This document shows positions 23,175 through 27,018 of a DNA stretch of 46,226 nucleotides, piece by piece. The stretch spans positions 1 to 46,226 of the forward strand of contig JADFTK010000003.1 of NCBI GenBank assembly GCA_022560375.1, in the 5' to 3' direction. A program made the position numbers and the translations under genes. The stretch comes from Patescibacteria group bacterium. GTDB lineage: Bacteria; Patescibacteriota; Patescibacteriia; UBA10025; JAHIVO01. The first letter of the stretch is position 1. Each line of letters opens with the position of its first letter. Under the pieces are notes generated by a model. It made no database searches, was not told the origin of the DNA, and saw nothing but the letters and a program-made list of their open reading frames with translations.

Positions 23175-23645
23175 TTATTCCTCTTGGACCTTAACTACAG
23201 TCACCTTGTTGACCTTGGTCGCTTTGGGCAAGGTAATAGTTAAGACGCCATTTTTTATAGTAGCGTTAATTTTATCTATTTTTACTTCGCAGGGTAATAT
23301 AATAGACCGGGAGAATCCCCCCCAATAGCATTCTCGATAAAAATAGTCGCCCTCTTCTACCTCGTGCTCTTTTTCCCTTTTGCCACGGATAGTGATCATA
23401 TCATTATTTATGGAGATATCTATTTCTTCAGGTTTCACTCCAGCGATGGTAGATTTGATAATTATATCATCCTTAGACTGATAAACATCGACGGCCAGCT
23501 GTCCAGAAAAATCCTCTTCATCAAGCCAATCCTTATTATTGGTTTTGGCCTCGGTTATCGTGCCATTGCCTGATGGCCCAACATCATTAGCAAAATCATA
23601 TTTATATTCATCACTAGATTTTTTTTCTTTGGTATTAGTAACCAT
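23175..23645 (-). CDS. Hsp20/alpha-crystallin small heat shock protein
   Basis: VDVYQ, AGVKPEEIDI, ITIRGKR, ECYWGGFSRSI.LP, KNGVLTITLPK. Confidence 0.93.
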   Translation of the reverse strand: MVTNTKEKKSSDEYKYDFANDVGPSGNGTITEAKTNNKDWLDEEDFSGQLAVDVYQSKDDIIIKSTIAGVKPEEIDISINNDMITIRGKREKEHEVEEGDYFYRECYWGGFSRSIILPCEVKIDKINATIKNGVLTITLPKATKVNKVTVVKVQEE

Positions 23646-23786
23646 ATTTTATTACCGTCAGTAATTACCGTATTTTCTTATATTATAGTATAAAATGTTT
23701 TACTTGACAACCAGTAATAATTGACGAGAAACTTTTTTTACGTTACTATTGCTGATACTTACAATTTTTTCTATACAGTTCAACAT

Positions 23787-23832
23787 GGCGCCTTCGTCTT
23801 CAGGCAGAGCCTGATCCGGCTACGCCGGAAGC
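23787..23832 (+). repeat. Copy of the tRNA-Glu 5' end interrupted by a 30-nt double palindrome
   Basis: GGCGCCTTCGTCT[TCAGGC-AGA-GCCTGA TCCGGC-TAC-GCCGGA]AGC versus tRNA GGCGCCTTCGTCTAGC. Confidence 0.8.
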
Positions 23833-23850
23833 TTAATTTACGAAACAACT

Positions 23851-24090
23851 ATGTATTACGTGTATATTCTAAAAAGTGTAATGAATAACCGTTTATATAT
23901 TGGAAGCACTAATGACGTTAATCGTAGAATTTTAGAACATAACAATGGAAATGTTAGTTCTACAAAAGCCTATATACCTTATAAATTAATTAAAATAGAA
24001 AAGTTTTTAAATAAAAAAGGCGCACTTAAAAGAGAATTTCAGATTAAAAAATCAGGGATACTTCGCCAGCAATTAAAACAACTTAATTAA
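23851..24090 (+). CDS. Small stand-alone GIY-YIG nuclease
   Basis: YYVYIL...LYIGST..V.RRI.EHN.G...STK...P...E......A..RE..IK. Confidence 0.9.
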   Translation: MYYVYILKSVMNNRLYIGSTNDVNRRILEHNNGNVSSTKAYIPYKLIKIEKFLNKKGALKREFQIKKSGILRQQLKQLN

Positions 24091-24101
24091 CCATAACCTA
24101 T

Positions 24102-24179
24102 GGCGCCTTCGTCTAGCCTGGTCCAGGACACCACGCTTTCAATGTGGTAACACGGGTTCAAATCCCGTAGGCGCTACCA
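24102..24179 (+). tRNA. tRNA-Glu (TTC)
   Basis: Acceptor GGCGCCT/AGGCGCT, anticodon arm CCACG-CTTTCAA-TGTGG, T-loop GGTTCAAATCC, encoded CCA. Confidence 0.93.
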
Positions 24180-24322
24180 TATTTAACACGAGGTTTTTTT
24201 ATCAGCCTAGCCCTAACAGGTAAGGATTTGAACGGGCAGAAGTGAGACAACCCTGAGTGAAGTCGAACGGGCAGTCGAACGTCGATGGGGTGCCGGTGGC
24301 ACGCCAACGCTGCCCAGGACGA

Positions 24323-24342
24323 AAATCCCGTAGGCGCTACCA
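24323..24342 (+). repeat. Direct repeat of the tRNA-Glu 3' 20 nt (att-like)
   Basis: AAATCCCGTAGGCGCTACCA identical to 24160-24179. Confidence 0.85.
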
Positions 24343-24380
24343 AAAAATAAAACTCCCGGCTTTAAATATATCAGGGGGCT

Positions 24381-25190
24381 TTAATTATTAGACTTTTTTT
24401 TGGCCCCAAAAAATATTACACCACCAAACACAACTACCCCGACAACTATTAATCCGATACCTAAGGCGGAGGAACTACCATTTGGCTCGTCGGTACTTGC
24501 ATCCGCCACTGCTACATTGAGCTGGTTATTAGCATTTGGCAAGGTAGTTTTTTTATTTATATCTGTGCTGACATCAGTTGAAGCCGATTGATTAGTGGAA
24601 CCATTAACTGTCCGGGGTTCATCCTGACTTAGCTCTAGCTCATTAACGGCCTCTGCTTCAGCTACTGGATCAGTGACAGCAGGGGTACTAGTCTCAGTTG
24701 TTGTCGTACTAGTATTTGTCGTGGCCGATTGACTGGTGTTGACGCTAGTGGTGTTGGTGTTGGTTGTACCAGTGTTAGTATTAGTGGTTGTTGAAGTATT
24801 GGTGTTAGTCGAGGAGTTAGTGTTTGTTACTACAGGCGCAGCTTGAACAGTCAAAGTTCCTCTCATGCCGCCATGGCCTTGACCACAAGCCACATTACAG
24901 AAAAAAGAGTAGGTGCCTGCCTTATTCGCGGTGAAGGTTGCACTGGCAGTTACTCCTGGCGATAGGGGTATATTTACCCCAAACTGACTAATCGCTAACC
25001 CATGACTTACGTCTACACTGGTCACATTAAGCGTTACCACGTCTCCTTCCGTGACCGTAATAGTGCTGGGAGTAAATGACCACTGCTTAGCTGTAATATT
25101 AAATGATCGGCTAGCCGCATCCGCTGACAAGGGTGAGAATAGTAAAACAAAAAATGGTATTAATAATACTGGTGCCAGACGCTTGATCAT
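24381..25190 (-). CDS. Cupredoxin (CuA-motif) surface protein with Thr-rich stalk and C-terminal TM anchor
   Basis: Signal peptide; AKQWSF.P, DVSHG, CNVACGQGHGGM; poly-T/N linker; TM plus KKK tail. Confidence 0.85.
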   Translation of the reverse strand: MIKRLAPVLLIPFFVLLFSPLSADAASRSFNITAKQWSFTPSTITVTEGDVVTLNVTSVDVSHGLAISQFGVNIPLSPGVTASATFTANKAGTYSFFCNVACGQGHGGMRGTLTVQAAPVVTNTNSSTNTNTSTTTNTNTGTTNTNTTSVNTSQSATTNTSTTTTETSTPAVTDPVAEAEAVNELELSQDEPRTVNGSTNQSASTDVSTDINKKTTLPNANNQLNVAVADASTDEPNGSSSALGIGLIVVGVVVFGGVIFFGAKKKSNN

Positions 25191-25360
25191 ATTTTTATCA
25201 CTTTACGGATTAGCCCTAATTCTTAGTAAGATAATACAACTATAACATATTATTAATTTAATTTATAACTCATGCTATCAAAACACTTCACCAAAACCTC
25301 GGGCCGTTTTGACTATTTTATAGGTTAGCCAAAAAGTAATTGTCAATCTATAATACAATT

Positions 25361-25996
25361 ATGAACAACTTTCTATCATATGAAAAAAATAAACAGGGAT
25401 TACTAAACAAAATTAAACTATTTTCAAAAGGCCAACAAGACAATATAAAAAAGGCAATGGAGGTTGCTGAACACTACCATACCGGCCAAATAAGGGATCA
25501 AAAAAGGGATGATGGCGGAGTTACCAAAGCAAAATACGTCATTCATTGTGTCCGGGCAGCGCTTTGGTTAATCCAAGAAGGAGTTAATGACATAAATATT
25601 ATTATAGCCACAATTTTACACGACTCATTAGAAGATACCTCTATTACCGAGAAAGAGATAAAAAAATTATTTGGTGATGATGTGCTAAAATTAGTTGTCG
25701 GGGTTACCCGACCCAGAGCTAATAATGAAACCGAGGCAGATAAACTTACTACTAAACCAGCCAACTACCAAAAAATACTAAATAGTGATGGGAGGATAAG
25801 GTTAATAAAAACAGCTGATCTGCTGGATAACATGCGGTCTTGGATATATCTACCAGATGATCATCCTTTTCAAAAGAAAATCCCTAGGTGGCTTCAGGAA
25901 GCCGAAAACTACAGCCTGCCCCTAGCTGAATCGGTGAACCAAAATGCAGCCCAGGAAATGAATAAAATATTAAATAATTATTTACCTAAAAATTAA
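25361..25996 (+). CDS. HD-domain (p)ppGpp hydrolase-like protein (small alarmone hydrolase)
   Basis: HTGQIR, YVIH, LHDSLEDT, FG..V..LV.GVT, IKTADLLDNMR; no synthetase domain. Confidence 0.8.
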   Translation: MNNFLSYEKNKQGLLNKIKLFSKGQQDNIKKAMEVAEHYHTGQIRDQKRDDGGVTKAKYVIHCVRAALWLIQEGVNDINIIIATILHDSLEDTSITEKEIKKLFGDDVLKLVVGVTRPRANNETEADKLTTKPANYQKILNSDGRIRLIKTADLLDNMRSWIYLPDDHPFQKKIPRWLQEAENYSLPLAESVNQNAAQEMNKILNNYLPKN

Positions 25997-25998
25997 CA

Positions 25999-27018
25999 AT
26001 GATAATTCTTGGCATTGAAACATCATGCGATGATACTGCAGTTAGCCTCATCCGTGGGACAAAAAATAAGCTTACTATATTATCCCACATCGTCTCCTCT
26101 CAAATAATGACGCACCGCAAATATGGCGGAGTAGTGCCGGAAGTGGCCGCCCGCCGACATGTCATAAATATTATTCCGACGCTAGATTCCGCCTTACGCC
26201 AAGCCAAAATATCATCTGATAAAATTGACGTCATCGCTGTGACCAGAGGTCCGGGTCTGGTAACCTCTTTAAGGGTGGGGGTTCAAACAGCCAAGGTGTT
26301 AGCTTTCGCCTGGAGGAAAAAAATTATTGGAGTCAACCATATGGAAGGACACATATACGCTAATTGGTTAGGCCGCCATAAAATTTCATTACCCGCTCTC
26401 TGCCTCATTGTCTCGGGAGGGCATACCGAGCTAATCCTCATGAAAAACCACGGGCAATATAAATTAGTCGGCCAAACTAGAGACGATGCGGCCGGGGAAG
26501 CCTTTGACAAAGTCGCCAAACTCATAGGTCTCAAATATCCGGGGGGTCCGCTTATCCAAAAACTGGCCAAGCAAGGCAACGCTAACCGCTTCAATTTCCC
26601 CCGGCCCATGCTATATCAAAAAAATTATGACTTTAGTTTTTCTGGCCTAAAAACAGCAGTACTTTATTTAGTAAAAAAAGAATTCTCAGAAAAAAAACTT
26701 CCCCTGGCTGATATCTGCGCGAGTTTTCAGCAGGCCGTTATCGACGTGTTGGTAAAAAAAACAATTAGGGCCGCTAAAAAACTAAACGTGAAAACTATAA
26801 TATTAGCTGGCGGCGTGGCGGCTAATGATCCCTTGCGGCAGCAGCTGGCCTCAGCTGTCAATAATGAACTTGAATTAACGAAATATATAAGCCCACCCCT
26901 GGATCTATGTACGGATAATGCCAGCATGATAGCCATGGCTGGCTTTTTCCACGCTATCAAGAAAGACTATAGCGACTGGCATCAGCTCGAAGCTGACCCC
27001 AACTGGGAGCTGGTCTAA
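25999..27018 (+). CDS. tsaD: t6A tRNA modification transferase TsaD
   Basis: LGIETSCDDT, GGVVPEVAARRH, NHMEGH, VSGGHT, DDAAGEAFDK, FSFSGLKT, TDNASMIA. Confidence 0.97.
   Translation: MIILGIETSCDDTAVSLIRGTKNKLTILSHIVSSQIMTHRKYGGVVPEVAARRHVINIIPTLDSALRQAKISSDKIDVIAVTRGPGLVTSLRVGVQTAKVLAFAWRKKIIGVNHMEGHIYANWLGRHKISLPALCLIVSGGHTELILMKNHGQYKLVGQTRDDAAGEAFDKVAKLIGLKYPGGPLIQKLAKQGNANRFNFPRPMLYQKNYDFSFSGLKTAVLYLVKKEFSEKKLPLADICASFQQAVIDVLVKKTIRAAKKLNVKTIILAGGVAANDPLRQQLASAVNNELELTKYISPPLDLCTDNASMIAMAGFFHAIKKDYSDWHQLEADPNWELV

Follow-up and report, generated by a model that had tools for sequence, protein, structure and literature searches.

A candidate integrase-free GIY-YIG nuclease cassette at the 5' end of a tRNA-Glu gene in a Patescibacteria genome

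The DNA analyzed, referred to throughout as the window, was a 46,226-nucleotide stretch of a Patescibacteria group bacterium (assembly GCA_022560375.1, contig JADFTK010000003.1, positions 1 to 46,226, forward strand) from a genome of 1.1 Mb and 41% GC. The subject of this report is a 79-amino-acid (aa) GIY-YIG nuclease gene placed directly 5' of the gene for tRNA-Glu(UUC). On comparison of sequences, positions 23800-24099 probably represent, although with real room for doubt, a small selfish nuclease cassette without an integrase, lodged in tRNA-Glu(UUC) after nucleotide (nt) 13 and moving by nuclease-driven repair. The tRNA stays functional because its nt 1-13 and two flanking nucleotides are present twice. 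The cassette looks like one member of a widespread and apparently undescribed family of selfish elements in the tRNA genes of ultra-small bacteria. Source genome and relatives are designated G000 and G002-G019, respectively, homologue loci by L numbers and contigs by C numbers.

The tRNA-Glu(UUC) locus and its nuclease

The features of the locus were as follows.

23721..23749, + strand: promoter-like site TTGACG-17-TACTAT, 5' of the tRNA fragment (consensus match only)
to 23765, + strand: second promoter-like site, TTTACG-17-TACAAT, overlapping the first (consensus match only)
23785..23799, + strand: 5' pseudo-copy (stump), AT plus tRNA-Glu nt 1-13; left copy of a 15-nt repeat
23800..23829, + strand: double hairpin (DH), two perfect 6-bp stems (fold, compensatory changes, identity to G008)
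23830..23850, + strand: AGC, equal to tRNA nt 14-16, and an AT-rich leader with no obvious Shine-Dalgarno sequence
23851..24090 including stop, + strand: gene for a predicted 79-aa single-domain GIY-YIG nuclease of Slx1/UPF0213 type (Pfam, structure model, selection)
24100..24114, + strand: right copy of the 15-nt repeat, shared in part with the 5' end of the intact tRNA (repeat search)
24102..24179, + strand: intact tRNA-Glu(UUC), CCA encoded; the only UUC isoacceptor gene found in the assembly

The tRNA-Glu(UUC) gene was the sole tRNA detected in the window using ARAGORN (Rfam tRNA, 59.4 bits). The sequence ATGGCGCCTTCGTCT, composed of two flanking bases (AT) and tRNA-Glu nt 1-13, was present at 23785-23799 and again at 24100-24114, forming an exact direct repeat with a spacing of 315 nt; a 15-nt exact direct repeat was obtained in 1 of 2000 shuffles of the surrounding 1 kb. 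The left copy was followed by the hairpins TCAGGC-AGA-GCCTGA (23800-23814) and TCCGGC-TAC-GCCGGA (23815-23829) and then by AGC. The stump was thus interrupted at the break by the DH, the working tRNA being nonetheless intact. An earlier reading of the window, made from the letters alone (the sequence-only reading), had described a tRNA-Glu 5' fragment 315 bp upstream, split after nt 13 by two perfect 6-bp hairpins, and both the repeat and the hairpins were confirmed. An alternative register, in which an 8-nt insert is followed by AGCCTGATCC against the D-loop sequence AGCCTGGTCC, is probably a coincidence; G008 has the same hairpin module next to a different D-loop. The GC content of the ORF region of the cassette was 27-32%, against 41% genome-wide.

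A tRNA intron, a split tRNA, a tmRNA and a group I intron were considered and rejected: ARAGORN and Rfam gave one ordinary tRNA, the stump had no anticodon arm, and there was no ribozyme match. The possibility that the hairpins were palindromic additions from hairpin-capped breaks was also set aside, their arms not being copies of adjoining tRNA sequence. Searching 23500-24500 against Rfam at E values up to 10 returned the tRNA only, with no family for the hairpins or for a further element downstream.

No integrase gene was found on the contig of the cassette, in agreement with the integrase-free character proposed earlier, and the ORF list held no recombinase around the site. Elsewhere in the genome three tyrosine recombinases (PF00589) were located, on C32, C40 and C17; serine recombinases were not searched. 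Since tRNA genes are classical integration sites and a copy of the tRNA 3' end is present downstream, the locus might be taken for the relic of an integrase-mediated integrative element, or for an assembly artefact at a repeated tRNA. Either is very improbable. The duplication beside the ORF is of the tRNA 5' end, the contig carries no recombinase, and the architecture recurs in six relatives. Independent metagenome contigs, from four runs of four studies, bridged the DH-ORF-tRNA junction in every run (23801-24129 or 23801-24179).

Four promoter-like matches were counted on the + strand, against 3.1 expected from shuffles, and a consensus hexamer scan revealed no + strand site between the fragment and the tRNA. 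Relatives with an empty site had TTGAC(A/G)-17-TA..AT in the corresponding position. Because promoter-like hexamers are located only 5' of the stump, and the sole tRNA-Glu(UUC) starts 11 nt past the stop codon of the ORF, the nuclease ORF would most simply be the 5' leader of the tRNA precursor. Transcription of the nuclease mRNA would then be guaranteed by an essential tRNA. The earlier suggestion that the tRNA promoter is used fits this arrangement, the hexamer count (4 vs 3.1 expected) being weak evidence. Among the listed public runs no RNA run carrying the region was found.

The ORF product matched the Pfam GIY-YIG family (PF01541) over residues 1-67 with 57.2 bits against a cut-off of 22.6 (E = 2.1e-15). 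No NCBIfam family exceeded its cut-off, a sub-threshold match to TIGR01453 being the only one. Residues Y3, Y5, Y16, G18, R26, H30, N31 and E62 were identical, or conserved to 90% or more, across 10 tRNA-linked sequences; as in the superfamily at large, the conserved Y..Y, Y-x-G, Arg and Glu are presumably catalytic. A profile of the tRNA-linked homologues, run against PDB sequences, found UPF0213 proteins BH0048 (1zg2, E = 3.7e-16) and EF2693 (1ywl, 8e-12), then Slx1 (1e-6 to 4e-5), and I-TevI at just 1.6e-3. The AlphaFold model had the GIY-YIG alpha/beta fold (pLDDT 94.2), and in Foldseek the best matches were BH0048, HIGLE and Slx1 (TMq 0.68-0.75, rmsd ~2 A), with I-TevI (0.52) and UvrC ranking lower. 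By profile and model, the protein is predicted to be a bare nuclease core of the Slx1/UPF0213 branch, without a DNA-binding domain.

Between the window and G008 the ORF showed dN of 0.108 and dS of 1.48 (NG86) or 0.66 (LWL85), giving dN/dS of ~0.07-0.17. With dN low relative to dS, the gene is maintained under purifying selection. A search of 2.9 million viral contigs yielded 16 distant relatives, none above 45% identity; viral relatives being few and distant, there was no sign of phage carriage.

The same site in relatives

Fifteen relatives that keep the divergent Hsp20(-)/tRNA-Glu(UUC)(+) gene pair were compared. Empty sites, anticipated by the sequence-only reading, were found together with filled and scarred ones. 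Six of the 15 were filled with a GIY-YIG ORF: G008 (81% aa identity) and G005, G003, G011, G004 and G006 (43-54%). Four were scarred (G014, G012, G016, G010), with no ORF but with remnants of the tRNA, either a 5' stump containing GC hairpins or a degenerate pseudo-tRNA. The remaining five (G015, G002, G007, G009, G019) were clean, with a distance from hsp20 to the tRNA of 150-240 nt in four of them. All three states occurred within genus g4 (G003 filled, G016 scarred, G015 empty), while genus g3 contained one clean site (G002) and two scars (G012, G014). The flank 5' of the stump in G003 and G016 corresponded to the flank 5' of the tRNA in the empty G015, and the flank 3' of the tRNA was common to filled and empty genomes; therefore the insert lies within the old tRNA position.

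The break was not at one fixed point. The ORF begins past the D-loop region in the window, G008 and G006, while the stump of G003, G004, G005 and G011 reaches ~nt 43-48 and has double hairpins both at nt 12/13 and in the anticodon loop (35/36). At least two supported, separate clades of the nuclease hold the Hsp20/tRNA-Glu site with differing break points, one comprising the window and G008 (support 91) and the other G005, G004, G011 and L084 (82-91). The stumps of G004, G011 and G010 were unlike the working tRNA in acceptor stem, D-loop or whole subtype, and by these differences stump and tRNA have different histories.

Stumps also tracked their own tRNAs. The tRNAs of the window and G008 differ at nt 7 (T/A), and each stump matched its own tRNA at 13 of 13 positions. 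The sequence AAGCTT after the DH was common to the two genomes; AGCTTG fits the D-loop of G008 and not that of the window. Because a dead 13-nt stump is not expected to track the tRNA under pure vertical descent, this pattern suggests that the 5' segment of the tRNA recombined once the tRNAs had diverged.

The same cassette type, with a DH of the same family and a break after nt 13 (...TTCGTCT), was found in the paralogous tRNA-Glu(CUC) of G004 (L134, C49) and G014 (L135, C63). The proteins of these loci were 57% and 62% identical to that of the window, respectively, and shared the C-terminal sequence QIKKSGLLRK; the G004 ORF had no stop codon and read into the tRNA. The syntenic CUC locus of G000 (GAPDH, small membrane protein, tRNA-Glu(CUC), holin-like gene; C49:8453-8527) was empty.

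Related nucleases and hairpins at other tRNA genes

Eight GIY-YIG paralogs were identified in G000, four of them directly 5' of tRNAs (Glu; Val, C38; Tyr, C8; Lys, C22). A hairpin-interrupted 5' copy of the tRNA preceded the ORF at each of these four, and at the Lys locus an additional 3' copy followed the tRNA. In a genome like G000, we infer, at most 51 genes can lie directly 5' of a tRNA. Genomes of the host family carried from 1 to 16 GIY-YIG copies.

A pattern scan of one genome per species gave at least 545 relatives, and the best 80 loci were examined. In 33 of the 80 a same-strand tRNA was located within 80 nt past the stop codon or overlapped it; the tRNAs were Glu, Ser, Arg, Tyr, Thr, Cys, His, Gly, Trp and Pro. 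The first 11 nt of the tRNA (up to 1 mismatch) recurred 55-153 nt 5' of the ATG at 22 of these 33 loci, compared with 0/33 on the opposite strand of the same stretch and 0/33 in the 450 nt 3' of the tRNA. Flanking tRNA fragments, which the sequence-only reading had proposed to look for among homologues, are in this sample a recurrent feature, and GC palindromes, its other expected associate, were a constant companion of tRNA-linked loci. Proteins clustered by tRNA identity, with 39 label changes on a weakly resolved tree against 63 after shuffling, and none of 200 shuffles was as low.

The interruptions were at loop positions whatever the tRNA type (nt 9-16 and nt 21-25), in the anticodon loop (34/35 or 35/36) of Glu, Ser, Arg and Tyr tRNAs, and in the T-loop at L055, C8 and L118. 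At 10 loci the tRNA was instead 5' of the ORF. By eye, 3-4 of them (L043, L053, L076, L079) had diverged, hairpin-interrupted 3' copies; the mirrored layout rests on few cases, because a strict test for a 3' copy after the ORF was passed by 1 of the 10. The claim that such elements target tRNA 5' ends was therefore upheld for the window and proved too narrow for the relatives, which interrupt D, anticodon and T loops and are in some cases mirrored.

Several mirrored loci (L053, L043, L079 and L105, from Bacteroidota and Ignavibacteriota) consisted of an intact tRNA, a GIY-YIG ORF and then a tRNA copy, in which the D arm or T loop was replaced by CCCCGCC-N4-GGCGGGG hairpins. At L053 the arrangement was a tandem one with a second ORF start, and at L105 ARAGORN miscalled a copy containing the hairpin as tRNA-Pro; for annotation, the stumps can be mistaken for tRNAs.

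Inverted repeats bracketed the ORF at 16 loci. An 84-aa GIY-YIG subgroup (L034, L038, L039, L044, L046, L048 and others) had inverted repeats of ~16 nt, CCCCACACCTTTCATT ... AATGAAAGGTGTGGGG. Bracketed ORFs were also present inside the genes for RNase P RNA (L097) and 16S rRNA (L083), in the same well-supported part of the tree.

The longer paralogs of G000 (95-110 aa; C67:8167-8469, C61:35008-35295, C21:4308-4640) formed a separate clade. Each had a hairpin upstream (CTCCCCATATCTAATGGGGA-like) and GTCATTCTGAGGGAG-type palindromic repeats downstream, and the SRM pattern published for Ssn nucleases had no match nearby. Of the 51 tRNA genes of G000, 12 were preceded within 600 nt by a repeat of their own first 11 nt and 9 were followed by a repeat of their last 13 nt, with 2 in each control; setting neighbouring paralogous tRNAs aside leaves, in our reading, ~10/51 5' and ~7/51 3' self-copies. 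These were on C8, C18, C22, C27, C28, C37, C38, C44, C45, C56 and C64, and GC hairpins stud several of them (C27 Ile, C27 Arg, C28 Thr).

The two hairpins of the window constituted the minimum-free-energy fold of the region as single-stranded DNA (ssDNA; z = -2.6). The 17 family genomes were searched using a 31-nt DH pattern with 3 mismatches allowed and the reversed pattern as control. One match was obtained in G000, 17 in G008 (10 forward, 7 reverse; ~14 sites), 10 in G014 (~8 sites) and 2 in G004; the other 13 genomes gave 0, as did the control everywhere. Genome-wide dispersal of the palindrome, which the sequence-only reading had proposed to count, was absent from G000, with its single copy, and present in G008 and G014. 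Stumps of other tRNAs (Arg, Val, Gln, Pro, Thr/Tyr) contained copies in both orientations, and G008 had some in ordinary AT-rich DNA between genes as well. When 14 distinct copies were compared, pairing held in 166 of 168 stem cells, with double compensatory changes at 3 pairs of hairpin 1, while the loops varied (RRA-type in the first hairpin, T-rich in the second). The DH of the window was identical to that of G008 at 30 of 31 positions. Because there is 1 change in 31 nt beside an ORF with dS of 0.66-1.5, the DH is constrained at the nucleotide level. Kissing-loop pairing of the two DH loops was tried and rejected as inconsistent across loci. Metagenome contigs contained the DH in other contexts, as seen from an elevated depth and, in two runs, from loose ends at positions 23800 and 23830.

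These properties suggest another explanation, in which the nuclease, like Ssn, recognizes its cognate DH in ssDNA and not the tRNA gene. The DH itself would then be the mobile or recombinogenic unit, landing in loops of tRNA-like DNA, and the tRNA link and duplications would be by-products of DH-stimulated breaks and repair. It is rather doubtful, although much of the hairpin evidence agrees with it. The DH is a sequence-defined repeat dispersed in relatives, copies L111-L114 are in plain intergenic DNA distant from tRNAs and nuclease genes, its orientation relative to the tRNA goes both ways, and DH-only insertions occur inside stumps at the D, anticodon and T loops of different tRNA types. 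DH type also tracks nuclease clade across phyla: a second clade has its own hairpin type across hosts (CCCY-N3-RGGG / CCACCC-GNA-GGGTGG in G005, G004, G011, L084 and the Elusimicrobia genome of L040). Ssn provides a precedent, cutting ssDNA beside hairpin repeats that flank its own genes (PMC11893778). Set against this are the single DH copy in G000, the published SRM pattern, which was not enriched (3 matches in G000 vs 2 shuffled) and absent within 500 nt of the eight paralogs, and the nearest solved relatives, which are UPF0213 and Slx1. Recognition of the hairpin alone would also leave unexplained why the ORF abuts or overlaps the 5' end of a tRNA in 33 of 80 loci.

Proposed mechanism and relation to known systems

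In the preferred reading, that of a cassette lodged in the tRNA gene, the nuclease would cut near nt 13/14, either in tRNA-Glu DNA as such or in the same DNA folded into a hairpin or cloverleaf. Repair copying from a cassette-bearing allele would install the DH and ORF together with a fresh tRNA 5' part, the resident nt 1-13 serving as left homology (and being left as the stump) and the rest of the tRNA as right homology. The upstream copy would thereby become a dead stump beside the old promoter, and the downstream copy would complete the working tRNA gene. The DH would be a cis element specific to the nuclease lineage, either a recognition or processing site or a block inactivating the stump. 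Later loss of the ORF by deletion after fixation would produce the stump-plus-hairpin scars. The sequence-only reading thus holds in outline, the nuclease-driven movement that it put forward being, like this mechanism, a proposal.

Several observations weigh against this reading. Within this species neither cleavage nor excision nor an empty allele was observed, and the cassette is fixed and vertically inherited. No empty-site joint was present in the contigs of the four metagenome runs, which cannot demonstrate absence. In a strain variant 12 of 328 cassette positions differed, a rate similar to that of the flanks. The dN of the ORF was close to that of the Hsp20 core between the window and G008 (0.108 vs 0.123, Hsp20 dS being saturated), a similarity that long vertical descent could also produce. 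In G000 the first 17 nt of both Glu tRNAs are identical, and yet the CUC gene holds no cassette; selection may not permit its conversion by the UUC cassette, since the CUC anticodon would be lost. The intact tRNA is the presumed target regenerated by insertion, which is awkward for a classical homing endonuclease. With the nuclease domain occupying residues 1-67 of 79 and the model comprising the core fold only, a separate DNA-binding domain is absent and a 79-aa core has no obvious means to read a long site; the nearest kin are structure-specific nucleases (Slx1, UPF0213) rather than I-TevI. The DH-positive genomes (4 of 17, from four genera) are exactly those with the window-type nuclease, but this co-occurrence is partly built in, the cassette itself holding one DH. 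The relatives are kin, hence counts across them are not independent, and the protein tree, built on 85 columns with 47 of 89 inner branches open, is weakly resolved.

Part of this evidence would suit a domesticated host gene. An old tandem duplication of the tRNA 5' region would have trapped a small repair or structure-specific nuclease, now vertically inherited and co-transcribed, with the hairpins as stability or processing elements of the leader RNA. The purifying selection, the presence of the cassette in all four runs with strain divergence like that of the flanks, the uninvaded CUC target and the UPF0213/Slx1 affinity, which suggests a cellular nuclease, are in its favor. We nevertheless regard it as unlikely. 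Clean empty sites and scars are found within single genera, one and the same locus is occupied by more than one nuclease clade, with break points that differ, the same cassette is present at a paralogous tRNA elsewhere, close relatives differ from 1 to 16 in copy number, the stump co-varies with the resident tRNA, and related ORFs reside inside RNase P RNA and 16S rRNA genes. The 11 changes in the ORF of the strain variant, moreover, were 8 non-synonymous and 3 synonymous.

The regenerated target, the uninvaded CUC locus and the short core favor a role for DNA structure (hairpins, cloverleaf), which would agree both with the affinity to Slx1/UPF0213 and with what is known of Ssn. A more tentative extension, possible but not favored, is a structure-guided mobile system. 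A minimal Slx1-like GIY-YIG nuclease would cut loop positions of structured-RNA genes, the lineage-specific DH would be its cognate site, and tRNA genes would be overwritten by a cassette that rebuilds them, sometimes with a foreign tRNA. Its targets would include tRNA D, anticodon and T loops, RNase P RNA and 16S rRNA. Such a system would make up a new class among the mobile elements that lack an integrase, and it would drive the turnover of tRNA genes across Patescibacteria and into Bacteroidota and Ignavibacteriota.

If mobile, the element would have solved residence in an essential gene by duplicating the start of the gene and not by splicing or an integrase, and to our knowledge it would be the smallest self-propagating nuclease element (~300 bp, 79 aa). 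It would also explain the self-fragments that litter the tRNA loci of reduced CPR (candidate phyla radiation) genomes and the replacement of tRNA genes by foreign copies (G004, G010, G011).

The remaining features of the locus were the following.

24224..24322, + strand: downstream structured element, its first 10 nt, GGATTTGAAC, being the reverse complement of the tRNA T-loop (no Rfam match)
24323..24342, + strand: the last 20 nt of tRNA-Glu (T-loop to CCA) repeated exactly, closing the downstream element (repeat search)
23175-23645, - strand: Hsp20 gene (Pfam)
24381-25190, - strand: secreted cupredoxin-like protein with a Thr/Asn-rich linker (Pfam)
25340-25996, + strand: HD-domain protein (Pfam)
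25999-27018, + strand: TsaD/Kae1-like ORF (read by eye only, without a family search)

The neighbouring genes are ordinary; in G008 the TsaD-like gene directly follows the tRNA. The sequence-only reading had missed the 3' tRNA fragment and the structured element that precedes it, and its layout was to that extent incomplete. The element is GC-rich, ~100 nt long and 44 nt past the tRNA; the 3' copy begins 143 nt downstream of the tRNA. Thirteen copies were found, behind tRNAs for Glu, His, Met, Gln, Trp and Gly in relatives and on C37 of G000, at 29-87 nt where the tRNA was present. In these copies the opening 10 nt form the reverse complement of the T-loop of the local tRNA, changing along with it, and the 3' end repeats that of the same tRNA. 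RNAalifold, applied to 11 copies, predicted 20 pairs, 14 of them with compensatory changes. One metagenome variant was without 24238-24381. The element is separate from the upstream nuclease cassette, and no protein linked to it was found.

A full-text literature search, with most subscription journals outside its coverage, returned no description of GIY-YIG cassettes in bacterial tRNA genes. Integrative elements that target tRNA genes use a tyrosine integrase and duplicate the 3' part of the tRNA. The cassette resembles them in using a tRNA gene as landing site and keeping it intact by partial duplication; it differs in having no recombinase found on the contig, a duplicated 5' part and a payload of 300 bp. 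The RAYT/REP analogy drawn by the sequence-only reading was loose. A RAYT is an HUH Y1 transposase, which cuts and rejoins DNA, whereas a GIY-YIG nuclease only hydrolyses it. A small gene linked to short, dispersible extragenic palindromes is common to both; here the protein is of the GIY-YIG type and the palindrome, at ~14 sites in G008 and ~8 in G014, is single-copy in G000.

According to Paquin and Lang, free-standing mitochondrial endonuclease ORFs of Allomyces reportedly bring along a segment that replaces part of the host gene, a duplicated fragment staying behind, and double-hairpin elements are said to occur there as well. The likeness would be in the restoration of an essential gene by partial duplication and in GC-rich double hairpins at rearrangement points; the fungal cases are said to be organellar, in protein-coding hosts and usually with a 3' duplication, in contrast to the bacterial tRNA gene and 5' duplication described here.

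SegB is a protein of ~200 aa with a DNA-binding part. A same-site presence/absence polymorphism in relatives, as seen here at the UUC and CUC loci, recalls homing endonucleases of the SegB and I-TevI kind, and a GIY-YIG nuclease gene adjoining tRNA genes recalls SegB itself. In T-even phages (T4/T6) this free-standing GIY-YIG homing endonuclease is encoded in the tRNA gene cluster and cleaves within tRNA-containing DNA (PMC2330249). It promotes inheritance of its own region (PMC2330249; PMC13096335) and drives recombination-dependent amplification of a unit of tRNA-Tyr and segB, and microhomology between a tRNA 5' end and the 3' end of the nuclease gene has been reported for that system (PMC13096335). 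SegB is phage-borne, whereas the gene described here is chromosomal, in ultra-small bacteria, and its 79-aa product is the core only, of the Slx1/UPF0213 type; the cassette, moreover, occupies the interior of the tRNA gene, together with a conserved double hairpin and a stump.

The Ssn nucleases are 94-aa single-domain GIY-YIG proteins that cut ssDNA beside hairpin repeats (NTS/SRM) flanking their own genes (PMC11893778). The protein described here (79 aa) is likewise a stand-alone single domain of about that size, short GC hairpin repeats, dispersed in some genomes, occur beside its gene, and hairpin type co-varies with nuclease lineage. It differs in that no SRM pattern is found within 500 nt of any of the eight paralogs, the hairpin is double and inside a tRNA stump, and the nearest solved relatives are UPF0213 and Slx1; in the main text of PMC11893778 the word tRNA appears nowhere. 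A family of tiny nucleases, each paired with short lineage-specific DNA hairpins, would be of practical interest in the way that the Ssn ssDNA nucleases are. The element belongs to the theme of free-standing nuclease genes, and its most interesting point is the pairing of hairpin and nuclease.

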